NCBI GenBank assembly: GCA_043718025.1 | Contig: JAYSWN010000069.1 | Span: forward strand, 3,698-67,697 | Direction: 5' to 3' | Origin: Pseudomonadota bacterium | GTDB lineage: Bacteria; Bdellovibrionota; FAC87; UBA2466 | Length of the DNA stretch: 64,000 nt | Shown here: piece by piece, positions 2,837 to 56,695 of the stretch | Layout: every line of letters starts with the position of its first letter | Position numbering within the stretch: position 1 is the stretch's first letter | Made by a program: the position numbers and the translations under genes | Notes under the pieces: generated by a model | What the model was told of the DNA's origin: nothing | Seen by the model: the letters and a program-made list of their open reading frames with translations, nothing else | Databases searched by the model: none

Positions 2837-4243
2837 TTAGACAGCTTTTTTGATCGGGTCCGTGGCCTCTTTACCAGCCTGACCCCGCCGAGTTTGGTAG
2901 GTGAGCTCTTCGCTGCCAAGCACCATACGGTCCGACCACTCCACACCTTGCATAAAAGAGTGATCTTGGTTGGACACTTCGTATTTCCACGCGCCAAAAC
3001 GGCCACGGCTATAAAGACCGTGTTTTTCCAACTCTGGCTGGACGCGGTTCAAAATCGAGTCACGCTCAAGCGATGGCACCGGGTATCCGTACGGCGCGCG
3101 AAATTGAAATTGGCTGACAATCTCATCGCGCGACGAGATTAGGCCGGTAGTGCGGCAACCTTCGATTGTTTCCTGGATCAAAGTGTTGGGGTCAACCGGT
3201 TTGTACTTCGATTCTGAAACCTCAAGCATCAAAGACCACTGGTTTTTAGGATCGGGAACGTTGTTCGGCGAATAGTGGGAAAAAACCGTAACCCGATAAA
3301 ACGGACAATTTGCTTCGGGAAAGTACATCCAGCATTTTTTGGAAAGAGCGGCGGGAATTTTCCCTTTAAGCCCCAGTCCAATCACATTCGTTGACGAATG
3401 AAAAAGCTGGTTCGCCATTTTAGTCACCTGTGGATCCAGCCCCTTCACCTTTTCGCAAAACTGGTCGAGCGGCATGGTGTTAAGCAGTTCGGTGTAACCA
3501 ATGGTGCGGCCATCTTTTAAAGAAACCAACTTGGCTTTTGGATCGATACCGGTAACCACCGAGCCGGTAAGAATGCGATCGCGCCCCACTCGATTCGCCA
3601 CGCTTTCCCAAATCGAACCGGTGCCGCCATTTTTTGGAAAATGAAACGTGTTGTTCGGGCCCCACGAGACGTCGGCCTTTTGCTGAATAATATTTCCCAA
3701 AATCCGTTTCACATCCGGAACGCTGACTCTTTGACCAATCCAGCCATAAGACATGAGTTCGGGCGGCGTGGCCCACACTTTAAAATTGTAGGGCAACATA
3801 AAAATATCGGCGACCCCTTGCCCGAAAGAGGCCAGAATCCATTCCCTAAAATTGGCCGGCTTTTCGGCGCCGGGCTTGATGGTAAGTAATGGCTCCACGC
3901 ACTTCCAGGTGTCTTCCTGAGGGAGGTAGCGCAAATTATTTTGGAACGGATAGGGCACAAAGCGATCTTTGACCCAAACCCAGCTCTCCCGTTCGTGGTG
4001 AAGCCATTCTTTCCGCGGAACGGCCGTTTCCATTGCCTCATCAAAGTAGGTGTAGTGCGAAAACTGGACGTGACCACCGATGTCCCACACAAACCCTTTC
4101 TTATCGGTAATGCTTTTTGCGAGGCCGCCGACCTGAGGATCACTTTCTAAAATCACAAAATCGGTGATGCCGTGGTCAAGTAGGCGAATGGCGGCGCCCA
4201 GGCCAGTGGGTCCGGCGCCGATGATTACGTAGTTTTTTTTCAT
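2837..4243 (-). CDS. glf: FAD-dependent UDP-galactopyranose mutase, eukaryote-type (long ~470-510 aa form)
   Basis: N-terminal Rossmann motif VIIGAGPTGLGAA. Blocks that I recall as conserved in Aspergillus/Leishmania UGM are present: DIGGHVQFSHYTYFDE, PYPFQNNL, MLPYNFKVWA, KCWMYFPEANCPFYRVTVFSHYSP and SRGRFGAWKYEVSNQDHSF. Confidence 0.75.
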   Translation of the reverse strand: MKKNYVIIGAGPTGLGAAIRLLDHGITDFVILESDPQVGGLAKSITDKKGFVWDIGGHVQFSHYTYFDEAMETAVPRKEWLHHERESWVWVKDRFVPYPFQNNLRYLPQEDTWKCVEPLLTIKPGAEKPANFREWILASFGQGVADIFMLPYNFKVWATPPELMSYGWIGQRVSVPDVKRILGNIIQQKADVSWGPNNTFHFPKNGGTGSIWESVANRVGRDRILTGSVVTGIDPKAKLVSLKDGRTIGYTELLNTMPLDQFCEKVKGLDPQVTKMANQLFHSSTNVIGLGLKGKIPAALSKKCWMYFPEANCPFYRVTVFSHYSPNNVPDPKNQWSLMLEVSESKYKPVDPNTLIQETIEGCRTTGLISSRDEIVSQFQFRAPYGYPVPSLERDSILNRVQPELEKHGLYSRGRFGAWKYEVSNQDHSFMQGVEWSDRMVLGSEELTYQTRRGQAGKEATDPIKKAV

Positions 4244-4256
4244 GAACAGGTTTCTG

Positions 4257-5045
4257 TTAGGCAGAGGCTTTTTCAGCCCGCTCGGTATTTTTAGGAATAG
4301 GGAGTTCCGCTAAATGCTTTTTCCACACCGGTGCAGCACGACGAAAGGCCCGAATCTCACTAAAGCACCGGTTGCACACATCGAACAGACGTCGGTTAAG
4401 GGTGACCACCCCGGTTCGGCGTTCCCGGTGTGAAACGGGCATTTCCAGAAGGGTGCCCTTCGACTTAGCGGCCAAGATCGATAAGAAAATGTTAGGAATA
4501 AATACCCCGCGCGGCACCAGCGTCAAAAGACCGGCAAGAAAACGAGACTGCATCAAGCGAAACGGCACATTGGCATCGCGAATTTCAGCGCCAAAAAATA
4601 CGAGCAATAAGACCGCATTGAGTCTTGAAATCACTATCCGCACCAAGGGGTCATGGCGCACTTGACGGTACCCGAGAATAAAAGGGGCTTCGTACCGGGC
4701 ATCCCACAGCTTGCCAAAATCTTCGTGGTTAAATTGATCGTCACTATCGGTTTGAAAAACAAACTCGGGCCCGAGTCGCAACGCCTGCTCGTAGCCATTT
4801 CGCACCGCCTTGCCGTGGCCGGCGTTCTCCTGATGAACCACTTTTAAGCGGTGTTCCTTACGCGCCATCGCGTTCAAGACTTCGGCGGTATTATCGCGGG
4901 AGCCATCGTTGACGATGAGAAGTATCCCGTCGTAGGCCGACGCCACGCTTAACCAAGCGCGGGCAACCTTCTCAATGCACGCCGCTTCGTTGTAGGCCGG
5001 CATGACGATCACTAGATTTGGCGCGTTATTTTCTTGAAGTTTCAT
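4257..5045 (-). CDS. Family 2 glycosyltransferase of the polyprenol-phosphate sugar synthase type (Dpm1/GtrB/ArnC-like)
   Basis: GT-A fold N-terminus: VIVMPAYNEA, then the DGSRD (DxD-like) motif and the QTDSDDQ acidic motif. It lies immediately upstream of glf in a probable two-gene operon. Confidence 0.8.
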   Translation of the reverse strand: MKLQENNAPNLVIVMPAYNEAACIEKVARAWLSVASAYDGILLIVNDGSRDNTAEVLNAMARKEHRLKVVHQENAGHGKAVRNGYEQALRLGPEFVFQTDSDDQFNHEDFGKLWDARYEAPFILGYRQVRHDPLVRIVISRLNAVLLLVFFGAEIRDANVPFRLMQSRFLAGLLTLVPRGVFIPNIFLSILAAKSKGTLLEMPVSHRERRTGVVTLNRRLFDVCNRCFSEIRAFRRAAPVWKKHLAELPIPKNTERAEKASA

Positions 5046-5141: not shown

Positions 5142-7112
5142 ATGCAGTCCTTAACTCCGCATTCCGAACTCCCTACAAATCCAGCGGCATCGTTGCTGAG
5201 ACCCAAGCAGGGGCTAAAAGCGCTTGCCCTATTGATTCTATTTTTGGGAATTGGATTGCGAAGTGTGAATCTTGGAGTTCGTCCGTTACACCACGACGAG
5301 TCAATCCATGCGACGTTCAGCGCTCAGTGGGCCGAATCTCCAGATCGATCATTCTACAAGTACGACCCCACGTATCACGGGCCGTTTTTATATTGTATCA
5401 CCCGTTGGATTTTTCCACTCGTTGGCATCGGCACCGCCGAGGCCCGGCTGTTTCCCCTTTTGTTTGGTCTCTTAAGCTTGTTCTCGTCGTTGCTATTCTG
5501 CCGCTGGATCGGCGTGGCGGGAGCGGCGGTAACCTTTTCACTTCTCGCACTCAGCCCACTGATGGTCTACTACTCACGCTTTCTTGCTCACGACATGCCG
5601 AGCCTCTTTTTTGCCTCGCTCATGGCTTACGGCGTTCTTCGATTCTACGATGGCGTCGCAAACAAAAATTTTCGTGAGGTTCGTAATGCATTTCTGCTGA
5701 CGGCGGTGGCGCTCGGAGTGCTCTTTTCAGTAAAGACCGTGGCCGTACTCTATGCGTTTATCTTTCTCACTTTTTTTGGCTTCGAACTGGCTTTACGTAA
5801 GTGGAGCCAACAAACTGCATTCTGGCCAATTGAGTGGAAAGCTTTTTCCCTCTGGGCAATGCCGGCCATCCTCGGCATTTTAAGCTTTTCAGTGGCATAC
5901 GGAATTTTTCAAACTTCATTCTTCAATAATCCGGCGGCCTTTTTCGACGGCATCCTCGGAAAAAATTTATCCTACTGGTGGAATCAGCATAAAATTGAAC
6001 GACTGGTGGGACCCACCACTTTTCACCTTAGAAGTTTACTGCTGCACGAATTCCCCGCGTGCTTGATCCTAAGCATCGCCCTATTCCGTATCACCCTGCG
6101 TTGGCGGCATGGAAAATGGGCGTTAGCGGCGCTATTCGTTCTTTTTTTGGCCACCGTACCTTTTTCTTGGAGTCTAGAGCGCGACCTTCCCGGCTTTTTG
6201 CTCTCTTTATTCAAAGCGGCAAAGATGAAATCGTCGCCCGCCATTTTTCTCTACTCAATGTGTTTTGTGTTTGGAATTTTGGGCAGCTATCAACTGTGGA
6301 AAGAAAAACGCTTGCCGACCGCATTTTTAAACTATTGGACCTTCGCTTCGCTAGCCATTTACAGTTACGCCGGCGAAAAAGCGCCTTGGCTTACTCTGCA
6401 CGTTGCCTTTCCGGCGGTACTATTGTGCGGAGGCCTCCTTTCTCAACGCTTCACCGAAATGGCCGCCGCATTTAGACTATCGTGGCGGCTTCCGCTCGCT
6501 AGGCGCGTTGTGGCCGCCTCCTTTTTACTTTTACTTCTGTACCAAACACGCCTGGCCTATTTCGTTTCGCACGTGACCGCGGGCAAACCTACCGATCTTT
6601 TAAGTCAGGTGCACAACAGCGAAGATGTAAATCGCGTTTTAAATTGGATGCAACGCGAAGCCTTTGAGTCTGGCGAAAAAAATGAAGGCCTCACCATCGC
6701 CCTTGCTGGCAATGTAACCTGGGCGTTCTATTTCAAGTTCATTGAATTTGGATTCAAAAAGTTCGTTCTCGACGCTAAACAGGTAACCGGCAACGAGCGC
6801 TTTATTGTTAGTGACGAAGAAAACTCCAAGGCACTATCGGCCAAACTAGAGCCGTTGGGTTACCAAAAGATCCAGTACACCCACTCCGGATGGTGGGTAC
6901 CCGAACATAGTAAAGTGGGCTGGGGTGATTGGGTTGAATATGCCCTGTTTCGAAAACCAACGGGGGCGGTGGGAACCACAAAAATGTTTGTTTTTCACAA
7001 GCCAGCCGTCCATCCGACGCTTGCGCCCGTTCCGGCCTCCTCCCCGGGGGTTACCACGATTACCGGCCCACTGCGCGACACGGCCGCCAAAACCGTTTTG
7101 CCCACAAAATGA
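5142..7112 (+). CDS. Polytopic membrane protein resembling GT-C glycosyltransferases (PMT_2/ArnT-like N-terminus; resembles the TIGR03663 family)
   Basis: More than ten predicted TM helices. The first periplasmic loop carries HHDESIHA (the DE dipeptide) and TYHGPFLY (the HGP tripeptide), the hallmarks I recall for TIGR03663. Its stop overlaps the start of the next gene (ATGA). Confidence 0.65.
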   Translation: MQSLTPHSELPTNPAASLLRPKQGLKALALLILFLGIGLRSVNLGVRPLHHDESIHATFSAQWAESPDRSFYKYDPTYHGPFLYCITRWIFPLVGIGTAEARLFPLLFGLLSLFSSLLFCRWIGVAGAAVTFSLLALSPLMVYYSRFLAHDMPSLFFASLMAYGVLRFYDGVANKNFREVRNAFLLTAVALGVLFSVKTVAVLYAFIFLTFFGFELALRKWSQQTAFWPIEWKAFSLWAMPAILGILSFSVAYGIFQTSFFNNPAAFFDGILGKNLSYWWNQHKIERLVGPTTFHLRSLLLHEFPACLILSIALFRITLRWRHGKWALAALFVLFLATVPFSWSLERDLPGFLLSLFKAAKMKSSPAIFLYSMCFVFGILGSYQLWKEKRLPTAFLNYWTFASLAIYSYAGEKAPWLTLHVAFPAVLLCGGLLSQRFTEMAAAFRLSWRLPLARRVVAASFLLLLLYQTRLAYFVSHVTAGKPTDLLSQVHNSEDVNRVLNWMQREAFESGEKNEGLTIALAGNVTWAFYFKFIEFGFKKFVLDAKQVTGNERFIVSDEENSKALSAKLEPLGYQKIQYTHSGWWVPEHSKVGWGDWVEYALFRKPTGAVGTTKMFVFHKPAVHPTLAPVPASSPGVTTITGPLRDTAAKTVLPTK

Positions 7113-9238
7113 ACGCCATTTTTCAACACCTCTTCGGCATTCTGGGTTGGTCGGCGTTATCGCTTATTTTTGGCGCCGCCTGGTTTCCCTTGTTTGCGGC
7201 ACGCCTCTCACCTGACTTAGCCTGGCCGCTGTGCCGGTTGAGTGCCACCATTCTAGTTACCAGCTTTCATCTGTGGCCTGCCTTTTTGGGACGCGTTGCG
7301 CTTACTCCCTGGATTACGCTAGCTATCGTGGCGGTCATCGCCATCGGCACTCATTCATTCACGCGAATAACCGTAAAAGAAAATCTAAAACGTTTTTTTT
7401 CGAAAGAGAATTTGCGGCACGAAGGCTTTATTCTTGGTGTTTGTTTTCTGTTTTTACTGATCGTGCTGTTCATCCCCAACGTCGCGAGCTCGGGCGAGCG
7501 ACTGCGCGATACCGGTTATTGGGTTGCGCTCAACACCCAGAAGAAATTTCCGCTCCTTGACCCCTGGCTATCCGGAGTGAGCGTTCCTTACTATCTGCTG
7601 GGATACTTGGCCGACTTGGAAGTGTTTCAATTTTTGCCGGTCTCAACCCTTATCCAATATAACTTAGGATTGATTGTCGCCCCCGCGCTCTACGCGTTTG
7701 CCTTACGCATGTTTTTTCGTTTGGTCTGGCCGGGCTCCAGGCTGGCCGGAGCGGCAGCGATGTGCCTACTGCTGGCCTGCAATTTTCGTAGCGTGGAGCA
7801 GGCCATCTCCCATATTTTTAGAAATGCCCCCTTTCAGTTCTGGGACTCTTCACGCGTTATTCCGGGAACGATCAACGAGTTCCCTCTCTGGACTGCTTCT
7901 TTGGGAGACTTACACGCCCATCTAATGAGTTTGTGGATTTTGCCAACCCTATTAGCGGTAGGAATCTACTTCCTATTCTTGAAACAGAAAGAAAGGGGAC
8001 TCCCTCAAGGTTTCTCCTTAGCTGAGCTAAGCATTTTTTCCTTTTTGACTTCGTGGTCCTACGGCATGAACACCTGGGAATTTCCGATTATCATTGCGGT
8101 GAGTCTTATTTCTATCGTGGGTAGCAGCCGTAATCAGGGTAAAAAACAGATCCTAAAATATTTGGCGTTCTTCGGGCTGGCCACGATGGTGCTTTGTCTA
8201 CCCTACGCCCTAACTTCGGCTAGCGGCCCCACCTCATTTTCATTCGTTAACCAAAGAACAAGCGCCTGGCCGATGTTTCAGGTCTTTGGTCTTTTCTTTA
8301 TCCCGCTCATGACTTTGAGCGCGAAAAGAGCCTACGACTCCGGAAAGAGAGAGTTGTTGGCGGCAATGGGACTGGCGGTGACTTTAATCTTCATTCTAGA
8401 CTCAGGGCTGGCCATGGTTACTACGGTTAGCTTCTTTCTCGGTACGACGCTTCTTTGGCGTCGGGAGAGTGAACGGATATTGGCGTTAATGGCCTACGGC
8501 GGGCTCTTACTCGTTGGATTTTGCGAGGTGGCCCACCTAAAAGATGCCTTCGGCGGTGATCTGGCCCGCATGAACACGGTGTTCAAATTTTACGTTCCCG
8601 CATTTACGTTGTTGGGAGTTTCGGCATTGCTGGCCTGGAAAGAGCTGCTGCCTTTATTTTCGACAACTCGGTTACAATGGTGCGCATTCGGCGGTTTAGC
8701 GTTTTGGTTAGTGGCCAGCAGTTCATATTTGGCCTTCGGATTGCGAAGCCGCACCAACGGTTTCCGGGTGCCGGCAAACTTCGATGGCTATGGCGAGCTG
8801 CGCAACTATTCCCCCGACGACGCCGTCGTGATCAACTGGATGGCCGAAGAAGTAAGACGGGGCGAGCTGAAGGGGACTTTGCTTGAGGTTATTGGCGGGG
8901 CCTACAGTTGGACCGGTCGGGCCGCCTCATTTACTGGTCTTGAAACGTACGCCGCGTGGGAAGGTTATAGCTACTGGTCTCACACCGGAAACGACGGTTT
9001 AATGCGAAGTCGCAGCAAAACAGCAAAAATGATTTTTGACGGCAGTTACTTCAACGCCGCGCCGTCCTGTGGCGATTTCACCGAAAAACTCCGCCAGTTG
9101 AAAATCAATTACGTCTTCGTGGGCAAAGAAATGAAGACTAACGTTGCTCCCTATACGAGAGATAAAATGGACACGTGCCTACTCCCTCTTCGGCGCCAAG
9201 GCATCGCCGCCCTGTACTCCGTTCCCGCGACCCGTTAA
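7109..9238 (+). CDS. Large polytopic membrane protein, 'YYY-domain' type (resembles TIGR03662/DUF2298), partner of the upstream GT-C-like protein
   Basis: 709 aa, highly hydrophobic with many TM segments. VPYYLLGY tyrosine motif, plus the conserved-looking INEFPLWTASLGDLHAHL loop. It is translationally coupled to the preceding gene. Confidence 0.55.
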   Translation: MNAIFQHLFGILGWSALSLIFGAAWFPLFAARLSPDLAWPLCRLSATILVTSFHLWPAFLGRVALTPWITLAIVAVIAIGTHSFTRITVKENLKRFFSKENLRHEGFILGVCFLFLLIVLFIPNVASSGERLRDTGYWVALNTQKKFPLLDPWLSGVSVPYYLLGYLADLEVFQFLPVSTLIQYNLGLIVAPALYAFALRMFFRLVWPGSRLAGAAAMCLLLACNFRSVEQAISHIFRNAPFQFWDSSRVIPGTINEFPLWTASLGDLHAHLMSLWILPTLLAVGIYFLFLKQKERGLPQGFSLAELSIFSFLTSWSYGMNTWEFPIIIAVSLISIVGSSRNQGKKQILKYLAFFGLATMVLCLPYALTSASGPTSFSFVNQRTSAWPMFQVFGLFFIPLMTLSAKRAYDSGKRELLAAMGLAVTLIFILDSGLAMVTTVSFFLGTTLLWRRESERILALMAYGGLLLVGFCEVAHLKDAFGGDLARMNTVFKFYVPAFTLLGVSALLAWKELLPLFSTTRLQWCAFGGLAFWLVASSSYLAFGLRSRTNGFRVPANFDGYGELRNYSPDDAVVINWMAEEVRRGELKGTLLEVIGGAYSWTGRAASFTGLETYAAWEGYSYWSHTGNDGLMRSRSKTAKMIFDGSYFNAAPSCGDFTEKLRQLKINYVFVGKEMKTNVAPYTRDKMDTCLLPLRRQGIAALYSVPATR

Positions 9239-9309
9239 GAAACGCCCCACTTTCTTCATTTAGCGCACTTGGCGCAGGAGCTATGACAAGGATAGAATAG
9301 AAAACCACC

Positions 9310-10659
9310 ATGCGATCTCTCATCAAGACAATAGCCGGTTGGGGTAACTTTCCTGCCTATCCGTGCCGCCTTTTTCGTGCCGAACGGCTTCGCGAACAAA
9401 AAGAGATTCTTTGCACTCCAAACGAAAGTTTCATCGCCCGCGGTTTGGGCCGGGCCTACGGCGATGCCGCCATCAATGCGGATCATGGCGTCGTACTGCA
9501 AGAACGCTTCAACCGTTTCCTTGCTTTTGATCAAGCCAGCGGAATGCTGGAATGTGAAGCCGGGGTTTCCTTTGAAGATCTGCTTCAAACTTTTGTGCCC
9601 CGTGGCTTTTTTCCGCCGACCACGCCGGGAACCAAGTTTATCACCGTGGGTGGCGCCGTTGCCGCCGACGTTCACGGCAAAAACCACCACTGCGATGGCA
9701 GTTTTTCCAAATCAGTTGATAGTTTTCGCTTGATGCTGGCCAATGGCGACGTAGTCACGGCGTCGCGCACCGACCATGCCGATCTCTTCTGGGCCACCAT
9801 CGGCGGCATGGGACTTACCGGGATTCTTACCTCGGTAAAATTTCGCCTGAGCAAAATCCCCTCCTCACGCCTCAATGTGCATTTTGAAAAAACCAAGAGC
9901 CTAGACGAAACATTGGCGCGTTTCACTACCACCGATGCGCAATTCGCCAATTCTGTGTGCTGGTTAGATACCGTGGCGTCCGGCAGCAAGCTGGGTCGAG
10001 CCGTGATGATGTTAGGAAATTTCGCCACGCCGGCTGAGTTGGGCGGAATGAAACGATTGAACGAAGTGTCTTTTTCAAAAAAGCGCAATGTTCCCTTTTT
10101 TCTTCCGGAGTTTGTTTTGAATTCGCTTAGCGTCAGCCTTTTTAACCGGGCTTACTACGCTCACTTTTCAAACGGCAGCAATAAAGTACAGACCATCGAC
10201 CAATACTTTTACCCGCTCGACGCGATCGACAACTGGAACCGTGGCTACGGCAAGTCGGGTTTTTTGCAATTTCAAGCGGTGTGGCCCAATGAGCAATCGG
10301 CCGCGGCACTGAAGAAGACCTTAGAAGAGATTCAGAAAGCGGGAGCCAACGCCTTTCTCGCGGTTTTAAAAACGATGGGGGCCAAGAGCGAAGGCATGCT
10401 GTCCTTTCCAATCGCTGGCCACACCTTAGCGCTCGACATTCCTTATCGCGGTAAAAAAACGGAAGCGTTGGCAAAACGTTTGAATGCCCTCACGTTAGAT
10501 TTTGGCGGAAGAGTTTATTTAGCTAAAGACGCTTTTCTTACCCGCGAGCAGACCCAGAAAATGTATCCCGACTTCGATAAGTTTTTAGCCGTGAAACACA
10601 AGTACGATCCTAACGGCCGCTTCGCCTCATCGCTTTCGAAAAGACTGGGTCTGGTGTAA
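9310..10659 (+). CDS. dprE1: Decaprenylphosphoryl-beta-D-ribose 2'-oxidase homologue (FAD-binding, DprE1 family)
   Basis: Matches my memory of M. tuberculosis DprE1 along its length: RGLGRAYGD, ITVGGAVAADVHGKNHHCDGSF, LFWATIGGMGLTGI, KLGRA, QYFYPLD..WNRGYG..GFLQFQ, LSFPIAG, LDFGGRVYLAKD, RFASSLSKRLGL. Confidence 0.85.
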   Translation: MRSLIKTIAGWGNFPAYPCRLFRAERLREQKEILCTPNESFIARGLGRAYGDAAINADHGVVLQERFNRFLAFDQASGMLECEAGVSFEDLLQTFVPRGFFPPTTPGTKFITVGGAVAADVHGKNHHCDGSFSKSVDSFRLMLANGDVVTASRTDHADLFWATIGGMGLTGILTSVKFRLSKIPSSRLNVHFEKTKSLDETLARFTTTDAQFANSVCWLDTVASGSKLGRAVMMLGNFATPAELGGMKRLNEVSFSKKRNVPFFLPEFVLNSLSVSLFNRAYYAHFSNGSNKVQTIDQYFYPLDAIDNWNRGYGKSGFLQFQAVWPNEQSAAALKKTLEEIQKAGANAFLAVLKTMGAKSEGMLSFPIAGHTLALDIPYRGKKTEALAKRLNALTLDFGGRVYLAKDAFLTREQTQKMYPDFDKFLAVKHKYDPNGRFASSLSKRLGLV

Positions 10660-11402
10660 TGGGAAACGATTCAAACTTTGTCATGGTGGTCGGCGCTACT
10701 TCGGGAATGGGCCAGGCCGTAGCACGAGCGTTTGCAGCCCAAAAGAGAAACCTTTTTTTGCTCGGCCGCGACATGCTTGCGCTCGAGACAATGGTAACGG
10801 ATCTCACTATACGATACGACGTCGTGGTGAAGGCGTTCTCCTTTGAAGCTACTGATTTCCAAGCCCACGGGGCACTACTAAATGACGAGCTCTTGGGGCA
10901 GGTTCAGGGCGCGGTACTTTGCCAAGGTTACCTTAATGATAACGCCGCCTCGCGTGTGGACTTTTTCGAATGGAAGACCACGCTCGACGTAAATTTCACG
11001 TCGGTGGTCTCCTGCCTTACGCCCATGGCCAATTTTTTTGAAAAGAGAAAAAGCGGGTTTCTCTGCGTAGTTGGCTCGGTGGCGGGGGTGCGCGGACGCC
11101 AAAGCAATTACGTATATGGTTCGGCTAAGGCCGCGGTTTCTATTTTTTTAGAGGGTCTCCGCCATCGGCTATTTAAGTCTAATGTTTCGGTCACCGAAAT
11201 ACGGCCCGGATTCGTCGACACCAGTATGACGTTTGGTATGCCCGGCCTATTCCTTGTGGCTTCACCGGAAAAAGTGGCCGCCGATATTTTGAAGGCCATC
11301 GAGAAAAAAAGCGCGGTTCGCTATACGCCCTTCTTTTGGTTGGGCATTTTAACGATCATCCGCTGCCTTCCCCGCTTCCTCTTCCACCGCTCAAAACTCT
11401 AA
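10659..11402 (+). CDS. dprE2: Decaprenylphosphoryl-2-keto-pentofuranose reductase homologue (SDR, DprE2 family)
   Basis: SDR Gly motif VVGATSGMGQAV and catalytic YGSAKAA. The C-terminal half aligns with Mtb DprE2 (NYVYGS.KA....F.EGL......V.V.EIRPG.V.T.M). The start overlaps the dprE1 stop (TAATG). Confidence 0.8.
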   Translation: MGNDSNFVMVVGATSGMGQAVARAFAAQKRNLFLLGRDMLALETMVTDLTIRYDVVVKAFSFEATDFQAHGALLNDELLGQVQGAVLCQGYLNDNAASRVDFFEWKTTLDVNFTSVVSCLTPMANFFEKRKSGFLCVVGSVAGVRGRQSNYVYGSAKAAVSIFLEGLRHRLFKSNVSVTEIRPGFVDTSMTFGMPGLFLVASPEKVAADILKAIEKKSAVRYTPFFWLGILTIIRCLPRFLFHRSKL

Positions 11403-11541: not shown

Positions 11542-12948
11542 TCACCCCATTATTCTGCGCAGCCACCCGAAGTTCTTTTCGTACGGAGGGTAACGAAGAG
11601 GCAGATCAAACCAGGTGGCGCGACTCAGCACACTCTTACGGTGAGAGAAAGTTTCGAAAGAAAACCAGCCGTGGTATCCACCCATGCCACTGGCGCCAAC
11701 GCCGCCGAAAGGCAAACGCGGGTTGCTCAAATGCACGAGAGTATCGTTCATGCAGCCGCCACCAAATGAAACAGAATTTACGGCCTTGGCCCGATGCTCA
11801 GGATTTGTGCCAAAATAATAAAATGCCAACGGCTTTTCGCGTTCGTTTACAAAACGAATAGCCTCGTCAAAATTCTCGTACTCGATCAACGGCAGGAGAG
11901 GACCAAAAATCTCTTCGGTCATCAATGGCATATCGAGGCGGGGTTGTCCGACGACCGTGGGCGAAATAAATCGCGCGCCCTTGTCGGTTTTTCCACCGAG
12001 CAAAATGTTTCCCTGTCCCAGCAACCCTTCTAAGCGCTGAAAGTGACGATCGGTGATGATGCGCGAGTACTCCGGGCTAGCTTGAATATCCGAAGTAAAA
12101 AACCGGTCTAGATTTGCCGAGATGCGTTCGACCACCCTTTTCTGCCAGCCCTTGGGGATGAGCAAATAGTCGGGCGCCACGCACGTCTGCCCGGCGTTAA
12201 AATACTTACCCCAGGTGATTCGTCGCATGGCGACGTCGAGATCGGCATCGGTATCTAAAAGGCAGGGGCTCTTTCCCCCCAGCTCCAAAGTCACCGGAGT
12301 TAAATGATTGGCCGCCGCCTGCATTACAATTTTTCCAACGTTGGTGCTGCCAGTATAAAAAATGTGATCCCAGCGTTCTTTGAGTAGCGCCGTCGAAATA
12401 TCCACCGCCCCCTCAATTGCCCACACAAATTCAGGATCGAACGTTTTTGCGATAATCTCGGCCACCACCTTCGATGTTTCCGGAGCCAACTCCGAGGGCT
12501 TCACCACCGCGCAGTTTCCGGCGCAAATGGCGCCCACCAGCGGCGCCATCGCCAACTGAAAAGGGTAATTCCAAGGAGAGATAATTAGAGTCGTGCCGAG
12601 TGGTTCGTAGTGAATGTGGCTTTTTCCCACCGCCAGGGTCATTGGCGTGGCCACCCGCTTGGGCTTCATCCAACTTTTTAGGTGTTTTTTGGTGAAGCGA
12701 ATCTCTTCGTACAGAAAACCCACCTCGCCCAAAAAACTCTCGGCCATCGACTTACCCAAGTCCGCTTTCAAAGCCTTAAAAATCTGCGGCTCCGCCGCCC
12801 GAATGGCGTGCATCAGCCTATCGAGCTGGGCCATGCGAAACTCGTAAGATTTGGTCTTCTGACTTAGGAAAAAGGCACGCTGTTTAGCGAGCCTCTCAGG
12901 AATCGAATTTGCCGTTACCATGCTGACCTCACGAAAAGATGATACCAC
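11542..12948 (-). CDS. NAD(P)-dependent aldehyde dehydrogenase (class 3-like)
   Basis: ALDH motifs ELGGKSP, EEIFGP and the catalytic-Cys region GQTCVAPDY. 468 aa. Confidence 0.9.
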   Translation of the reverse strand: MVSSFREVSMVTANSIPERLAKQRAFFLSQKTKSYEFRMAQLDRLMHAIRAAEPQIFKALKADLGKSMAESFLGEVGFLYEEIRFTKKHLKSWMKPKRVATPMTLAVGKSHIHYEPLGTTLIISPWNYPFQLAMAPLVGAICAGNCAVVKPSELAPETSKVVAEIIAKTFDPEFVWAIEGAVDISTALLKERWDHIFYTGSTNVGKIVMQAAANHLTPVTLELGGKSPCLLDTDADLDVAMRRITWGKYFNAGQTCVAPDYLLIPKGWQKRVVERISANLDRFFTSDIQASPEYSRIITDRHFQRLEGLLGQGNILLGGKTDKGARFISPTVVGQPRLDMPLMTEEIFGPLLPLIEYENFDEAIRFVNEREKPLAFYYFGTNPEHRAKAVNSVSFGGGCMNDTLVHLSNPRLPFGGVGASGMGGYHGWFSFETFSHRKSVLSRATWFDLPLRYPPYEKNFGWLRRIMG

Positions 12949-13007
12949 CCTAACCGGCTTGCGGAGCCCTTGTTTTAGCCCCAGGTTTAGGCTAAAAACG
13001 CCCCACT

Positions 13008-13982
13008 ATGGCAGACAAAACTATCTCTAAGTTCATTGAGCACCATTTCCGACATTTCAACGCTGCGGCGTTGGTTGATGCCGCAAAGGGGTACCAAAAG
13101 CATTTAGACGCCGGCGGCACCATGTTTATGACCTTAGCGGGGGCCATGAGCACCGGGGAGTTGGGTCTGTCGCTGGCCGAGATGATTCGCAAAGGAAAAG
13201 TGCACGCCATTTGTTGCACCGGCGCGAACCTAGAAGAGGATGTTTTTAACCTCGTCGCCCATAAATCTTACAAACGCATTCCTCATTACCGCGACCTCAC
13301 GCCGGCCGATGAAACCGAGTTGTTAAGCCATCATTTAAATAGGGTAACCGACACCTGTATTCCCGAAGAAGAGGCGATTCGCAAACTTGAGCACGTCATC
13401 ATTGAAGAGTGGACCAACGCCTCTGAAAGGGGTGAGCGGTATTTACCGCACGAGTACTTCTACAAGGTCTTGCTTTCGGGAAAACTAAAGTCCGAATACG
13501 AAATTGACCCGGCTAACAGCTGGATGCTGGCCGCCGCCGAACGTAATTTGCCAATCATTGTTCCGGGCTGGGAAGACTCAACGTTAGGAAACATTTTTGC
13601 GGCGCGCTGCATGGAAGGCAAACTCAAGGTCAATGCCATGAAATCAGGCATTGAGTACATGATGCAGATGTCAGCCTATTACTTAGAAAACTGCCGTAAG
13701 GGCAAAGGCATCGGTTTTTTTCAAATTGGTGGCGGCATCGCCGGCGATTTTCCGATCTGCGTGGTGCCGATGCTGAATCAAGATCTGCTTAAAGACGTGC
13801 CGGTATGGGCGTACTTTTGCCAAATTAGCGACTCGACCACGAGCTACGGCTCTTACTCGGGCGCGGTGCCCAATGAAAAGATTACCTGGGGCAAGCTCGA
13901 CATCGACACCCCAAAATTTATCATTGAATCGGATGCGTCCATCGTTGCGCCCTTGATCTTTGCCCATGTGTTGGGATGGTAG
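13008..13982 (+). CDS. Deoxyhypusine synthase-like protein (DHS/homospermidine-synthase family)
   Basis: The C-terminal block IGGGIAGDFPI...SYGSYSGAVPNEKITWGKLDID...ESDASIVAPLIFA aligns with the human DHPS segment GGGVVKHHI...DGSDSGARPDEAVSWGKIR...ADASLVFPLLVA. Confidence 0.8.
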   Translation: MADKTISKFIEHHFRHFNAAALVDAAKGYQKHLDAGGTMFMTLAGAMSTGELGLSLAEMIRKGKVHAICCTGANLEEDVFNLVAHKSYKRIPHYRDLTPADETELLSHHLNRVTDTCIPEEEAIRKLEHVIIEEWTNASERGERYLPHEYFYKVLLSGKLKSEYEIDPANSWMLAAAERNLPIIVPGWEDSTLGNIFAARCMEGKLKVNAMKSGIEYMMQMSAYYLENCRKGKGIGFFQIGGGIAGDFPICVVPMLNQDLLKDVPVWAYFCQISDSTTSYGSYSGAVPNEKITWGKLDIDTPKFIIESDASIVAPLIFAHVLGW

Positions 13983-14779
13983 GCCCGGCCCTAGTAGTAA
14001 AAGACCTCATTAAACATTATAAGGGGCGCCAAAAAGTAGAGGCGGTAAATGGCGTTTCGTTTACGGTTAACCCTGGCCAATGCTTTGGGCTTTTGGGTCC
14101 AAATGGCGCCGGTAAATCTACCACCATCAATTGCCTCATCGGCTTTTTTCCGCCCACGTCGGGCTCGGTGCAGGTGATGGGATTCGATGTTCATCACGAA
14201 CCCAAAAAAGCACGACAGCTTTTGGGCGTTTGCCCGCAAGAAGACACCCTAGATACTGACTTTACGGTGCGCGATCAGCTGATCCGTCATGCCACTTTTT
14301 TCCGGATGCCCGCCGCCGACGCCAAACGCCGCGCCGACGAGCTACTTGAGCGATTCGGCCTCAGCGGTAAGGGTAAGGAGTTGGTCGAACGGCTCTCCGG
14401 TGGAATGCGCCGCCGCCTACAAGTGGCGCGGGCATTAATCTCCAGCCCAAAAGTTCTAGTGCTGGATGAACCTACCACCGGCCTAGATCCCGACGCCCGT
14501 CGCACGTTGTGGGACATTTTAGAAGAGTACCGCGCCAAGGGGCTCGCGATCTTACTTACCACCCATTACATGGAAGAGGCCGAGCGCCTCTGCGATCGCA
14601 TTGCCTTGATTAAAGACGGAAAAATTTTAGACGAAAACTCGCCGCGCGCCCTGATCGACAGGCACGTCGCCAAAGAGTGGGTTGAAGAGGAGATCCGCCC
14701 CGGCGTCAAATGGAAACGCCCCGCAAACCTCGAAGACGTCTATTTAACCATTACCGGCAGTAAACTGGCGGAGGCATAA
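13976..14779 (+). CDS. ABC transporter ATP-binding protein (ABC-2 exporter type)
   Basis: Walker A GPNGAGKST, signature LSGGMRRRLQ, Walker B VLVLDEPTTGLD. Overlaps the DHS-like gene by 7 bp. Confidence 0.9.
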   Translation: MVGPALVVKDLIKHYKGRQKVEAVNGVSFTVNPGQCFGLLGPNGAGKSTTINCLIGFFPPTSGSVQVMGFDVHHEPKKARQLLGVCPQEDTLDTDFTVRDQLIRHATFFRMPAADAKRRADELLERFGLSGKGKELVERLSGGMRRRLQVARALISSPKVLVLDEPTTGLDPDARRTLWDILEEYRAKGLAILLTTHYMEEAERLCDRIALIKDGKILDENSPRALIDRHVAKEWVEEEIRPGVKWKRPANLEDVYLTITGSKLAEA

Positions 14780-14781
14780 AA

Positions 14782-15552
14782 ATGGGCGACACTTTTTGGG
14801 CCATTCGGTGCGTGTACTTTCGCTACCTGGCGGTCTTCCGTAAAAATGTTTTATACAGTTTGATGACCACCATCGTGGAACCCCTGCTCTATGTCCTCTC
14901 GTTCGGCTTTGGTCTAGCCACCATGATTCATGAAGTGGGTGTCGGAGACAAAACCATCGGCTACCGCGCCTTTGTGCTCTCGGGCTTCGTCGGCCAGAGC
15001 GTACTTTTTCAGGGTTTTTTCGAGGCGGCCTACGGCGGCTTTGTGCGCATGTACTACCAAAAGATTTTTAAAGCCATGGCCACGACGCCGGTGACGATCG
15101 AAGAGGTCTTGTGGGGAGAGTTAACCTGGGACGCCACTAAGGGTACTCTATCCGCCGGCATGGTTTTGCTCATTGGCAGCCTGCTCGGCGATTTTTCTCC
15201 GTGGGGCGCCGTCGTGCTCTTTCCCCTGTGCTACATTTTTTGCTTTATCTTTGCCGGTCTTGGCCTTTGGGTGTCGTCGCTAGCCACCACGATTGATCAA
15301 CTGGCGTACCCGCAATACCTTTTTGTTTTTCCCATGTTCCTATTCGGCGGTGTTTACTTCCCCATCGATAAGCTGCCCTCATTCGTAAGCAAAGCGGCGT
15401 GGTTTCTCCCGCTTACGCCTTGCTTAGAGATCACGCGAGGACTGCTCTTTGAGGTTTCCATCGCCTGGTATGCCTGGGTGCTGGTGGCCTTTTGGGCCGT
15501 ACTGCTACCTGTCACCTCACACGCGGCGATGAAACGCCGGCTAGTGAAGTAG
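14782..15552 (+). CDS. ABC-2 family transporter permease
   Basis: Six hydrophobic segments. Immediately downstream of the ABC ATPase. Confidence 0.7.
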   Translation: MGDTFWAIRCVYFRYLAVFRKNVLYSLMTTIVEPLLYVLSFGFGLATMIHEVGVGDKTIGYRAFVLSGFVGQSVLFQGFFEAAYGGFVRMYYQKIFKAMATTPVTIEEVLWGELTWDATKGTLSAGMVLLIGSLLGDFSPWGAVVLFPLCYIFCFIFAGLGLWVSSLATTIDQLAYPQYLFVFPMFLFGGVYFPIDKLPSFVSKAAWFLPLTPCLEITRGLLFEVSIAWYAWVLVAFWAVLLPVTSHAAMKRRLVK

Positions 15553-21881: not shown

Positions 21882-24713
21882 TCACTTTTCGGCCGGTAAA
21901 AATCGCCGGAATTTTTCAAGCGGCGGTCGCGGGGCTGGTTGCACCTCCTGCATCCGAATGGCTTCGAGCACCAGCATACGAAATTCTTTGGGATCCAGCC
22001 CCAGCTCTTTAAAGTGCTCAATCGCATCAACCGCAAATTGAGTGCCGTTTACCGATCCGTCTTCATTCTTCCACGCGGCCACCTGAGCGGCCGTGAAATG
22101 GGCTTTCAACTTTACGGTGCCCGGGGCATTGAGCGCTTGATTGAGCAACGCCCTAACGTATTTCACCTGCAACGCTGCCATATACTCGTCAGTGGGCGCA
22201 TCGAACAGCCTGAACTCCAGCCGGTCTTTGCCCTTGCCGCCAAACGCGGGAAACCATTTCACCGCTGGATCTTTGATGTCGATGGTCTTCTGGTACGCCT
22301 TAGGAATTGCCCCCGACATCAATGCTGTGGCGTTGAGCTGCGCGTATCCCGGCTTACGGGTGATGTAGGGATTAAAGTACCGCTGCTCGTAGAGCAGGGT
22401 ACCAAGCTCATTCCACTCACCGCTAAACGAATTTAGCCCGGCAACGAGTTCGGGCGTCTGCTCAACGGCAAGAGCGGCGCGCACCCGAAACGGGTGCTGC
22501 CATAAAAACTGAATCATGTCGCGGTTTGACTCAAAGTACGCAATCAAGTTCGCCGCTTTTCGCGCCCCTTGCCGTGGCCCCAGGGCCACTAGCGGCGCTA
22601 GATCAATATTCACATGCGCGCCACCGGCCCCGCGCCTAGGCACTTGCCCCAGTTCGCGCATCGCCAAATACAAGGCCCTCACCTCTTCCGGATCGGCCGG
22701 AGATTTTTTGGGCGACGGCACTTCGATGTGGCCAGATCGCGACCGCTTAACCCCGTCGTCGGTGTAAGAGCGATTAATGCCGTCCCATTCGATGCGCCAA
22801 ATCTCGCCATTGGCCCGCGTGTACCGGTAACGAATTCCCAAATTATGGCCATGCCCCGTAGAGTCTAGCTCTTCGAGCAAGCCGGGTGCGGTGCCGATGG
22901 GATCTATCGCTTCGAAATATTTTTTAACCATCTCGGCGGTGCTTTTCAGCCGCTCGTTGGCGCGATCGCGCGATAACGGCCGGTCCGGAAAACGGAAACT
23001 ATATTCAATTCCCAAATCAATGAGATTAGGATTGATCTTGCCGTCGTACGGCACGGTGATGGTGGGTAGGGTTCCCGTGGGCCGCGGAATAAGATAGCGC
23101 TCGAAATCTTCTTCGAGTGAAACACGGCGGGCAAATTGGTATTGAAACTGTTCGAGCTTGCCCACCATTTCAGATCGGAGTTCGCCCAAGGCAACGTTGT
23201 GTTCAACTTTTTCGTATTTTCGCAAATATTCCTTCGCCACTTCAAAAAGCTGAATGGCGTAGCGTTCTTGCGCCGCCCGTAAAATATCTACTTTCGCAAA
23301 TGAGGGAATTCTTAGATCCCACCGAAACAGCGGCGCCAAAAGCTTGTTTCGCATGTGGTTATGGGCTAAGCCGTGCGCCGACCACCTGAGCTGCGGAAGC
23401 TTCTGTTCGAACTCTTCCACCACCGCCAGCTGCTTCTCGCTGAGAAAACGGAGTGCGTGTTCGCGTATAGATCGCGATGGATCAAACTCATCGCGGTGCT
23501 GGTGGTAACTTTGCACCCCATTGTAGTCGCCACTCCACAGCCGGGCCTCAATTAAGTCTTCGACGAATTCACGTTTGATCCCTTTGTTTCCCGATCGCAT
23601 CTCCCAATCGACCACCTGGCCACCCTCAGTCTGCCCAGGCAAAGAGGGATCCATGGAAAAATTTCGGGCTCCGACCATGCGAAATTTATTATTAAACTTT
23701 TTAGGGTCGTCTTCGTTCATGGCGGCTTCAAGGCGGTTTAACGCCGCGTTGGAATAAACCCCCAAATAGCGGTGGCCCAAAATAGAATCGGCCTCGTTGG
23801 GGCTACGGCGGGCTTGGCGCCAATAGAGCATCCACGATAGCGAATCGATGAGCTCAATGTATTGGGGCGCAATACGCGCGCGCTCAACTGCCGAGGTGGG
23901 CCAGGCGTGCACAAAGTGCTGATGGCCGATCAACCCTTCCAGGTAGGCTTCAAACAGAACGCGTTGTTCAAAGTACTGGGTGCGATCGGCTTCACCTCGC
24001 GCCGATCTCAGCTCGTACGAGCCATTCACGTCGTCGCCCACTTCAACAAAGGCAGGAGCTTCTTGCGACGGTTTCAGCCAAGAGAAATAGAGCAGCCGAA
24101 GGGCAAACAGCTCGTCGCGACCCGCTGGGTTGATAACGTCAAAAGGATTTTCACGACTGGACAAATAATCAACCTGCTCTTCGGGAGTCAGCTTCACCCA
24201 CTCGCTGGGCTTTAGGCTGACGGCCGGAATGCGGTAGCGCGTAGGATAATCAGACAACCAGCGCAGCAGCGCGCGGTGCGCGGCCTCACCATATTTTGAG
24301 GCAATTTCTCCAGCCGGGAAAATGTCTTTCAAAACGTTAGTGAGGGCGTTTCTAAATTCCACTGGATCGATGCGGTCGAACCAGGTGGCGATGTCGCTGT
24401 AAAACAGGCCCTCTTTTTCCATCGCGTGGGCAATGGGAACCGTCGACCCCTTCATCGAAATGTAGAGGGGCCTGTTGGTGCCGCGGGCCCCGGGAACTTG
24501 TAGTTTGTACCAACGTAAATCTACCAGCGCTTGGTGACACGATGCTGGCGGCGCCGTGAGTTTGACGGCCGTGTCTTTGGCCAGGGCAGACGGTAAAAAA
24601 ACCGGCGTCGACAGCAGTGAGAGGACTAAAAACGAAGTGAAGAAACTATGACCCCAAAACTCAACGCGCGCGCGAGCACGCGTAGTCCAGCCCATCCCCA
24701 AGTTCACACCCAC
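21882..24713 (-). CDS. Large (943 aa) secreted protein of unknown function. The C-terminal third has carboxylate-amine-ligase-like motifs.
   Basis: Signal peptide. No family recognised. Motifs RSGHIEV, GGAHVNIDL and LEFRLFDAPTD resemble the G.H.H.G and E.R..D blocks of the GCS2/amidoligase superfamily. Confidence 0.55.
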   Translation of the reverse strand: MGVNLGMGWTTRARARVEFWGHSFFTSFLVLSLLSTPVFLPSALAKDTAVKLTAPPASCHQALVDLRWYKLQVPGARGTNRPLYISMKGSTVPIAHAMEKEGLFYSDIATWFDRIDPVEFRNALTNVLKDIFPAGEIASKYGEAAHRALLRWLSDYPTRYRIPAVSLKPSEWVKLTPEEQVDYLSSRENPFDVINPAGRDELFALRLLYFSWLKPSQEAPAFVEVGDDVNGSYELRSARGEADRTQYFEQRVLFEAYLEGLIGHQHFVHAWPTSAVERARIAPQYIELIDSLSWMLYWRQARRSPNEADSILGHRYLGVYSNAALNRLEAAMNEDDPKKFNNKFRMVGARNFSMDPSLPGQTEGGQVVDWEMRSGNKGIKREFVEDLIEARLWSGDYNGVQSYHQHRDEFDPSRSIREHALRFLSEKQLAVVEEFEQKLPQLRWSAHGLAHNHMRNKLLAPLFRWDLRIPSFAKVDILRAAQERYAIQLFEVAKEYLRKYEKVEHNVALGELRSEMVGKLEQFQYQFARRVSLEEDFERYLIPRPTGTLPTITVPYDGKINPNLIDLGIEYSFRFPDRPLSRDRANERLKSTAEMVKKYFEAIDPIGTAPGLLEELDSTGHGHNLGIRYRYTRANGEIWRIEWDGINRSYTDDGVKRSRSGHIEVPSPKKSPADPEEVRALYLAMRELGQVPRRGAGGAHVNIDLAPLVALGPRQGARKAANLIAYFESNRDMIQFLWQHPFRVRAALAVEQTPELVAGLNSFSGEWNELGTLLYEQRYFNPYITRKPGYAQLNATALMSGAIPKAYQKTIDIKDPAVKWFPAFGGKGKDRLEFRLFDAPTDEYMAALQVKYVRALLNQALNAPGTVKLKAHFTAAQVAAWKNEDGSVNGTQFAVDAIEHFKELGLDPKEFRMLVLEAIRMQEVQPAPRPPLEKFRRFLPAEK

Positions 24714-56053: not shown

Positions 56054-56695
56054 TTGTTGATGAAATTTCAGGTTTGGTTTTTTGCGGCGGTCTTATCGCT
56101 GTCCAGCTTCGCAGACTGGACCAAACTGGGACCTTCCTCTTTTAAAATGGCCGATCCTCCTGAAGTGGGAAGCGAGGCCGATGAAAAAGACTACGAAGAA
56201 TTACACCGCCTTCAAGAAAACCGAACGAAAGGTGACTGCCAAGAAGGTCGCGAACAGCTTAGCCACACGTTCGAAAACTTTTTTGGGCCCGAGAGCGGCC
56301 AGCTTACTCAAAAACAGTTTGATCGTTACGAAGATCTCTTCGCCAGAGTCTTTAAACTCACTTCGCGAATCGGCGGGTATTTTAAAGATCACTACGAACG
56401 GCCACGTCCCTACATCGCCGATGAAACGCTAAAACCCTGCATTCCTAAACCGGGAGCCAGCCGCTCCTACCCCAGCACCCACGCCGCATTGGGAACCGTG
56501 GCGGGCTGCCTTTTGGCGCAAGCCTTGCCCGTTAAAGCTGAAAAATTGCAATCACACGGAAAACGAATTGGAGACTTGCGCATGATTGTAGGCGTCCATC
56601 ACCCTACCGACGTTAAGGCCGGGCAAAAATTAGGGCGCCAAATCTGCGAACGGTTGATGACCGATGCTGAGTTTACCGAGGAGCTAGGGCTCTAA
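56054..56695 (+). CDS. Secreted PAP2-family (class A acid) phosphatase
   Basis: Signal peptide. PAP2 motifs KDHYERPRP, PSTHAA and GVHHPTDVKAG. Confidence 0.6.
   Translation: MLMKFQVWFFAAVLSLSSFADWTKLGPSSFKMADPPEVGSEADEKDYEELHRLQENRTKGDCQEGREQLSHTFENFFGPESGQLTQKQFDRYEDLFARVFKLTSRIGGYFKDHYERPRPYIADETLKPCIPKPGASRSYPSTHAALGTVAGCLLAQALPVKAEKLQSHGKRIGDLRMIVGVHHPTDVKAGQKLGRQICERLMTDAEFTEELGL

Follow-up and report, generated by a model that had tools for sequence, protein, structure and literature searches.

Does a bacterium outside the mycolata encode a true DprE1/DprE2 epimerase, and, if so, where does the lipid-linked sugar that it acts on come from? These questions are raised by two adjacent genes, dprE1 and dprE2, at positions 9310 to 11402 of a 64,000-nucleotide stretch (64 kb; hereafter the window) of contig JAYSWN010000069.1. 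Judged from their sequences, they are a true DprE1/DprE2-type pair in a non-mycolate bacterium. The pair probably converts a lipid-linked ribofuranose to arabinofuranose, with the enzymes that make the substrate encoded elsewhere in the genome.

Identification of DprE1 and DprE2 in the window

The gene dprE1 (9310–10659, forward strand) was identified by open reading frame (ORF) calling, Pfam, NCBIfam and phmmer searches of the Protein Data Bank (PDB). It encodes a 449-aa DprE1-like protein, a predicted FAD-dependent polyprenyl-phospho-sugar 2'-oxidase. Pfam detected FAD_binding_4 and ALO, the domains of a two-domain VAO/PCMH-type FAD oxidase. Residues 39–448 aligned with the solved DprE1 structures of M. 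smegmatis (E = 3e-85) and M. tuberculosis (Mtb; E = 7e-83), and the protein is about 35% identical to mycobacterial DprE1. An earlier reading of the locus, made without database searches (the sequence-only reading), had claimed a match over most of the length, the FAD-binding N-domain included, and the alignment bears this out.

Homologous loci were gathered by a genome scan (80 loci) and a metagenome scan (80 more). The DprE1 proteins of three contigs, L083 (70% identity), L082 (63%) and L085 (61%), form a small clade together with that of the window. We then compared individual residues in an alignment of 72 DprE1 homologues with the Mtb sequence, whose first 48 residues are provisional and, among the residues cited, affect only Gly17. 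The equivalents of Mtb Y60, H132, K134, W230, Q334, Q336, K367, Y415 and K418 were all kept in the window protein, and the same nine active-site residues were invariant across all 67 other aligned homologues. At otherwise conserved columns, the window clade differed at two positions only, A229C and D404N (Mtb numbering). An altered sugar specificity through clade-specific residues was considered and dropped, as two positions are too few to argue it. With the active site kept as well, nothing indicates a changed sugar specificity of DprE1.

The gene dprE2 (10659–11402, forward strand) encodes a 247-aa DprE2-like short-chain dehydrogenase/reductase (SDR), recognised from its Pfam domain (adh_short, E = 2.5e-29), its motifs and its BLAST cluster. 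It contains the NAD(P)-binding motif GATSGMG and N112, S140 and Y153-x3-K157, the complete Asn-Ser-Tyr-Lys catalytic set of a classical SDR. Thus the catalytic His, Lys and Tyr residues of DprE1 and the YxxxK residues of DprE2 are all present in the window. The C-terminus of DprE2 is a hydrophobic tail, FFWLGILTIIRCLPRFLF. Residues 7–244 aligned with residues 11–251 of the 254-aa Mtb DprE2 (PDB 21gq_C), in agreement with the claim that DprE2, too, resembles its mycobacterial counterpart over most of its length, hydrophobic tail included, but at E = 1.5e-15, and Mtb DprE2 ranked only fourth among the PDB matches, the higher ones being generic reductases. The protein shares a BLAST cluster with the SDRs that adjoin DprE1 homologues in 43 other loci.

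At the junction of the two genes (gtgTAATGgga), read directly from the sequence, the stop codon TAA (10657–10659) and the start codon ATG (10659–10661) have one base in common, as had been noticed before, so that TAATG spans 10657–10661 on the forward strand. DprE2 is encoded directly 3' of dprE1 in most homologous loci as well, and of 73 loci in which DprE2 follows dprE1, 33 show an overlap at the junction. The stop/start overlap is a generic trait of the DprE1/DprE2 family.

The host is not a mycolate bacterium: MlaDEF and a phosphate-selective porin are encoded on the contig, and the nearest homologues belong to Planctomycetota, Hydrogenedentota and similar groups. The position of the pair outside the mycolata is thus upheld, but not as a novelty. 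DprE1 homologues gave more than 7,900 matches, with Planctomycetota, Abditibacteriota, Gemmatimonadota and Firmicutes among the named sources, and Gram-negative cases have been published (see below). Non-mycolate DprE1/DprE2 pairs are thus nothing new and are numerous, and the family is a large one with a wide distribution beyond the Actinobacteria.

The benzothiazinone-binding cysteine

Cys387 is the covalent benzothiazinone site of the DprE1 of drug-sensitive mycolata and is dispensable for catalysis. In the HMMER alignment, Mtb Cys387 (GWNICVD) was paired with Ala374 of the window protein (GHTLALD). The sequence-only reading was right that the cysteine is absent, but it had placed the position at AFLAVLKT, and this stretch (residues 348–355) pairs with Mtb residues 361–368 (SFLNVFKL). 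None of the 67 homologues outside the window clade has a cysteine at position 387; nearly all have alanine or threonine. The proposed natural insensitivity to benzothiazinones is therefore reasonable but not special to this protein: the sequences predict it for the family in general. Lack of the cysteine is the default state of the DprE1 family, which is relevant to judging the spectrum of these drugs. Among mycobacteria, M. avium is the published natural exception at this position (PMC3035642).

Gene neighbourhoods of DprE1 homologues

We clustered the ORFs around the DprE1 homologues. A protein of about 300–500 aa with the UbiA motif NDxxDxxxD adjoined DprE1 in 52 of 72 loci, and the next commonest neighbours were a DprE2-like SDR, a 140-aa GtrA-like protein and a HAD protein. 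When the metagenome loci were included (141 loci), the neighbours were UbiA in 92, DprE2 in 85, GtrA in 26 and HAD in 16. The adjoining UbiA in 92 of the 141 loci indicates that polyprenyl-P-ribose is the usual substrate of the family.

Many of the DprE1-adjacent UbiA proteins have 430–540 aa and not about 300 (L002, L004, L006, L029, L030, L033 and others; cluster C1). Fusions of a phosphatase to PPPRS, the UbiA-type enzyme, have reportedly been described for Citrobacter ORF15, and such a fusion would fit the length of these proteins.

The sequence-only reading had stated that neither UbiA nor GtrA is visible in the 64 kb, and our searches found neither. No Pfam match to UbiA (PF01040) or GtrA (PF04138) was obtained among all 63 non-overlapping ORFs of at least 90 aa in the window. 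Profile hidden Markov models (HMMs) of the UbiA-like, GtrA-like and HAD-like neighbours that DprE1 homologues have in other genomes gave nothing better than E = 0.35 against the six-frame translation of the whole window. The 2.9 kb upstream of the window, covered by Logan contig L081, which overlaps the window start, encode MlaDEF and a sigma-54 activator and no UbiA.

In a neighbour-joining tree, the window clade was nested among clades of UbiA-linked DprE1. A metagenome scan for further members of the clade found none, only homologues of at most 48% identity. The clade contigs share their downstream synteny, which comprises an aldehyde dehydrogenase, a deoxyhypusine synthase-like gene and an ABC transporter; 3' of dprE2, these genes, with an ABC-2 transporter pair, occupy 11542–15552 in the window and 5609–9723 in L085.

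A Wzm/Wzt-like ABC-2 transporter pair is divergent from dprE1 in L082 (7283–8709), L083 (5561–6990) and L085 (1661–3123). The window has no such pair at that position. From the divergent pair comes a hint that the acceptor, like mycobacterial galactan, is a polymer exported by an ABC transporter.

A glycosyltransferase of family 2 (GT2) is rare near DprE1 whether UbiA is absent (6 of 48 loci) or linked (7 of 92). Enrichment of GT2 at the loci without UbiA was considered and rejected, as four of these six loci are the window clade itself. In L115 (9860–15541), another DprE1 homologue (41% identity) is followed by a DegT-type aminotransferase of 540 aa, a GMC-like oxidoreductase and a related GT2 of 251 aa, and this locus has neither DprE2 nor UbiA. 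By oxidation and then transamination, the L115 set could lead to a lipid-linked 2-amino sugar.

GT-C membrane proteins upstream of dprE1

Two genes for large membrane proteins precede dprE1 on the forward strand. The product of the first (5142–7112, 656 aa) belongs to TIGR03663, the Agl23 family, scoring 241.9 bits against a cut-off of 126. Pfam gave no PMT match up to E = 5. The family profile, however, gave a match to ArnT (5ezm) at 1.5e-10 that spans the N-terminal 170 residues, which include an HHDE loop motif; within the family, H50 and E53 do not vary and H51 and D52 hardly vary, and the motif aligns with the DE loop of ArnT. The AlphaFold2 model of the protein had a pLDDT of 88.8, and its top 32 Foldseek matches were all GT-C proteins, including ArnT (1.6e-9), AglB, STT3, Pmt4, ALG9/12, AftA and Emb.

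The second protein (7109–9238, 709 aa), whose gene overlaps the first by 4 nt, matched Pfam DUF2298 (4.9e-61) and scored 280.9 bits with TIGR03662 ('chlor_Arch_YYY'), under the cut-off of 300.25. It was assigned to GT-C by fold alone. Its AlphaFold2 model (pLDDT 87.5, pTM 0.90) had six best Foldseek matches in the PDB that were all GT-C: DPY19 (4e-5 and 1.5e-4), STT3 (2e-4), PglB and ArnT (twice). PDB searches with the single sequences of both membrane proteins, and with the DUF2298 profile, gave no matches, and a literature search on DUF2298 brought up two papers on other subjects. According to the models, both upstream proteins carry a GT-C fold.

For Agl23 of Haloarcula, the prototype, a hexose-P-dolichol flippase function and the flipping of lipid-linked glycans in proteoliposomes have been reported (PMC11182771), so that a flippase role could be covered without GtrA. 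The cluster has no Pfam match to a dedicated MATE, SMR or GtrA flippase, and the Agl23-family protein is the only candidate. The remark that no GtrA-like flippase is visible stands, but it overlooks this protein. The HHDE loop and the ArnT-like fold of the model suggest transferase chemistry, and not flipping alone, for the TIGR03663 protein.

A GT2 and a eukaryote-type UDP-galactopyranose mutase

On the reverse strand, divergent from the GT-C genes, lies a GT2 gene (4257–5045, 262 aa; Pfam Glycos_transf_2), and 13 nt downstream of it begins a second gene (2837–4243, 468 aa), identified by PDB phmmer as a eukaryote-type UDP-galactopyranose mutase (UGM). Residues 5–451 of the latter matched the T. 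cruzi UGM (4dsg) at E = 2.2e-143 and the A. fumigatus UGM at about 1e-136, and the motifs GGHVxFSH and RFGAWxYEVxNQDHS of eukaryotic UGM were aligned. Pfam labels this protein merely Amino_oxidase and NAD_binding_8, and NCBIfam calls it 'hypothetical' (PRK07208). Judged by the full-length match, the protein labelled amine oxidase is a eukaryote-type UGM. The sequence similarity suggests that bacteria have a UGM family which annotation tends to miss, or that the gene crossed from one domain of life to another long ago.

The GT2 as a single sequence (residues 11–213) matched ArnC at 1e-9. Its family profile matched the three solved polyprenyl-phosphate glycosyltransferases, ArnC (2.5e-23, positions 4–224 of 251), GtrB (1.3e-13) and DPMS (1.3e-11), across almost all of the catalytic domain; with other GT2 enzymes, the match was confined to the first 105 or so residues. 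A DSDDQ motif is found at residues 100–104. The 262-aa protein has no C-terminal hydrophobic segment and thus no C-terminal transmembrane hairpin; polyprenyl-phosphate GT2 members without transmembrane segments exist, such as human DPM1 and Mtb PpgS. By these profile matches, the GT2 is a polyprenyl-phosphate glycosyltransferase of the ArnC/GtrB/DPMS type.

The association with the mutase is recurrent. A GT2 of about 250 aa and of polyprenyl-phosphate type adjoined the mutase in seven of nine loci examined, the window included, often with a GT-C protein beside them. Loci of this kind lie at 2837–5045 in the window, 8001–13193 in L086, 8001–10111 in L168 and 3–1077 in L171. In L086, L168 and an OPKC contig, the mutase comes directly after the GT2 and DprE1/DprE2 are absent; in L086, the mutase is 59% identical to that of the window and precedes a 1017-aa GT87/PMT_2 GT-C protein. 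In L087 and L169, a GT2 homologue lies beside an acyltransferase without the mutase. The recurrent module of GT2, mutase and GT-C predicts a lipid-linked galactofuranose (Galf) donor, for which full-text literature searches, with subscription journals outside their coverage, returned no description.

The modules of the window were differently combined on other contigs. A TIGR03663 protein followed by a TIGR03662/DUF2298 protein was also found in L083, L170 and L171, and in L170 this pair occurs without DprE1/DprE2. L083 contains all three modules, but their order is changed and an ABC-2 transporter lies between them. On the L082 contig, DprE1/DprE2 are still accompanied by the GT2 and the mutase, and the GT-C pair is not present. 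In L085, a different GT2, of GtrB length, adjoins DprE1/DprE2. L171 has the layout of the window, with a mutase fragment (68% identity), GT2 (48%), TIGR03663 protein (45%) and DUF2298 protein (33%). Next to these is a 306-aa UbiA, which is 44–47% identical to the DprE1-adjacent UbiA proteins and reached 335 bits with their HMM, and then a second DUF2298-like gene.

Elsewhere in the window, three large ORFs had no Pfam family at E up to 0.001: 21882–24713 (reverse strand, 943 aa), 28767–30602 (forward strand, 611 aa) and 60345–61541 (forward strand, 398 aa). Rfam detected no family, tRNA included, at the gathering score over the 64 kb.

Substrate of the DprE1/DprE2 pair

We propose that DprE1 would oxidise the 2'-OH of a polyprenyl-phospho-β-D-furanose to a 2'-keto sugar, which the SDR would then reduce from the other face. 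The most likely substrate is polyprenyl-P-ribofuranose (Ribf) and the product polyprenyl-P-arabinofuranose (Araf). This substrate would be made by a UbiA-type phosphoribosyltransferase and a 5'-phosphatase whose genes lie in another part of the genome. We favour this epimerisation of Ribf to Araf and regard it as probable, because the active site is unchanged, the clade is nested among UbiA-linked enzymes, the GT2–mutase pair works without the epimerase elsewhere, and the sister cluster on L171 has a UbiA. The clustering of the SDR with the DprE2 proteins of UbiA-linked loci, its Asn-Ser-Tyr-Lys residues, and the position of the L171 UbiA beside the mutase, GT2 and GT-C set were also counted in its favour. 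So was the GT-C character of both upstream membrane proteins, since GT-C enzymes use polyprenyl-P-sugar donors, and so was the published model of Gram-negative pentofuranose systems, in which DprE1/DprE2 homologues serve Araf (PMC11127046). The pair would belong to a cluster for furanosylation outside the cytoplasm; it is directly downstream of the two GT-C genes and may be co-transcribed with them. Polyprenyl-P-Galf, made by the mutase and the GT2, would be a further lipid-linked donor. From both donors, the GT-C enzymes would pass the furanose on to an acceptor in the envelope at the periplasmic face, and the Agl23-family protein may have an additional part in flipping the donors.

Several observations weigh against this proposal. 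There is no UbiA, HAD or PAP2-type partner within 12 kb upstream or 52 kb downstream of the pair, the sole PAP2 gene detected by Pfam (56054–56695) being 45 kb from it, and contigs L082, L083 and L085 of the clade likewise have no UbiA, GtrA or HAD. The link between UbiA and this type of cluster comes from a single contig, L171, which is a 7.7-kb fragment with no DprE1/DprE2 on it. A promoter-like site (9269–9298) before dprE1 makes separate transcription possible, although it scored no better than chance, as did the promoter and terminator scan of the region as a whole. Both proteins also fell short of the equivalog cut-offs of NCBIfam, DprE1 with 429.4 bits for NF053785 (cut-off 500) and the SDR with 139.5 bits for NF053786 (DprE2; cut-off 250). 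The top NCBIfam family of the SDR was PRK07102 (256.6 bits), which is also under its cut-off of 267.

These low scores would be in keeping with a VAO-family oxidase and a generic SDR that act on a soluble substrate without a lipid carrier, such as a sugar lactone or an alditol, as would the second Pfam domain of DprE1, which is the C-terminal domain of ALO (arabinono-lactone oxidase), and the generic reductases that head the PDB matches of the SDR. We consider a soluble substrate highly improbable, for the DprE1 model still scored about 360 bits above the runner-up NCBIfam family (71 bits), Lys418, His132 and Lys134 are kept, the SDR resembles DprE2 in its hydrophobic C-terminus and falls into one cluster with DprE2 genes, and the gene context consists wholly of lipid-linked glycosylation functions. 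If the substrate is lipid-linked, it might instead come from the adjacent GT2, as the sequence-only reading had supposed. The GT2, fed with UDP-Galf by the mutase, would make polyprenyl-P-β-D-Galf, and DprE1/DprE2 would invert C-2 to give a lipid-linked D-talofuranose, or would act on another lipid-linked sugar made by the GT2, so that UbiA would not be needed. The GT2 is indeed of the polyprenyl-phosphate type, and β-D-Galf-P and β-D-Ribf-P have the same configuration at C1 and C2. The window, L082 and L083 have kept the GT2 and mutase beside DprE1/DprE2 through several rearrangements, in L115, too, a DprE1 homologue stands near a related GT2 without a UbiA, and UbiA, GtrA and HAD are missing on all four clade contigs, compared with UbiA in 65% of the other loci. 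The shared downstream synteny means, however, that the absence of UbiA across these four contigs is not independent evidence. The GT2–mutase pair appears self-sufficient, as in L086, L168 and the OPKC contig its partners are other GT-C or membrane proteins and DprE1/DprE2 are absent; L171 joins the same cluster to a UbiA; and the DprE1 active site is that of UbiA-linked enzymes. To our knowledge, moreover, D-talofuranose is not known in glycans. Supply by the GT2 is thus conceivable but unlikely, and we are rather doubtful of the complete route without UbiA, in which the D-talofuranose lipid would be installed by the TIGR03663 and DUF2298 GT-C proteins.

The remaining alternative accepts polyprenyl-P-Araf as the product and assigns it to a pathway in which the GT2, mutase and GT-C genes next door have no part, their juxtaposition being lineage-specific synteny. 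Each module stands alone elsewhere (the GT-C pair in L170, GT2–mutase in L086 and L168, DprE1/DprE2 with UbiA in most loci), and dprE1 is separated from the preceding GT-C gene by a gap of 71 nt that holds the promoter-like site. On the other side, the gene order varies among the window, L082 and L083 while the modules stay together, and L171 ties a pentofuranose starter enzyme to the same set of GT-C, GT2 and mutase genes. A GT-C enzyme is exactly the expected user of the DprE1/DprE2 product (PMC11127046). Such a neighbourhood with no link in function is improbable, and epimerisation of Ribf to Araf for the adjacent GT-C enzymes remains the explanation that we prefer.

Comparison with known systems

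The pair shares with the mycobacterial decaprenyl-P-ribose 2'-epimerase (Rv3790/Rv3791) the arrangement of an FAD oxidase and an SDR as adjacent genes, full-length alignment, the catalytic residues, the hydrophobic C-terminus of the SDR and the presence of GT-C genes nearby. It differs in its sequence (about 35% identity), in the change of Cys387 to Ala and in its diderm-type host. Equivalents of the UbiA (Rv3806c), PAP2 phosphatase (Rv3807c) and GtrA (Rv3789) of the mycobacterial region are missing here, and the mutase is of the eukaryotic and not the bacterial Glf type.

In the three-component pentofuranose systems of Gram-negative bacteria, DprE1/DprE2 homologues are auxiliary epimerases that convert lipid-linked Ribf to Araf for a GT-C transferase at work outside the cytoplasm (Kelly et al. 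2024, PMC11127046). A DprE1/DprE2-type pair outside the mycolata is also present in the TfpW pilin D-Araf cluster of P. aeruginosa (bioRxiv 10.1101/2020.04.19.049825). The arrangement of the three-component systems is that of most of the 141 loci that we examined. The window has in common with it the DprE1/DprE2 homologues and a GT-C transferase predicted to act outside the cytoplasm, but has no PPPRS (UbiA), phosphatase or MATE/SMR/GtrA flippase beside the pair. In place of the GT136-type enzyme there are two GT-C proteins, one of TIGR03663 and one of TIGR03662, and the GT2 and mutase module is added.

The GtrA/GtrB/Gtr* and ArnC/ArnT systems, whose donor is made by a polyprenyl-phosphate GT2 and used by a GT-C enzyme, resemble the cluster in that its GT2 is like ArnC, GtrB and DPMS and its TIGR03663 protein is like ArnT in sequence and fold. 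Here, however, the GT2 has no C-terminal transmembrane hairpin, GtrA is absent and an epimerase pair is attached; the pairing of the GT2 with a UDP-galactopyranose mutase would imply a furanose donor. As in the haloarchaeal Agl22/Agl23 system (a dolichyl-P-hexose synthase and a flippase-associated protein), the TIGR03663 cut-off is passed, a TIGR03662/DUF2298 protein is encoded next and a GT2 is adjacent, whereas the host is bacterial and the HHDE loop and ArnT-like fold are features of the protein described here.

The association of TIGR03663 and TIGR03662 proteins with DprE1/DprE2 was seen only in the small window clade. If the conventional reading, epimerisation of Ribf to Araf, is right, the window would add one more lineage, and TIGR03663 and DUF2298 proteins as new GT-C partners, to the non-mycobacterial pathways for lipid-linked Araf. 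Both membrane families, which are poorly understood, would thereby gain a role that can be put to the test. Of greater value as a lead is the recurrence of GT2, eukaryote-type mutase and GT-C genes, which predicts a lipid-linked Galf donor for extracytoplasmic galactofuranosylation.

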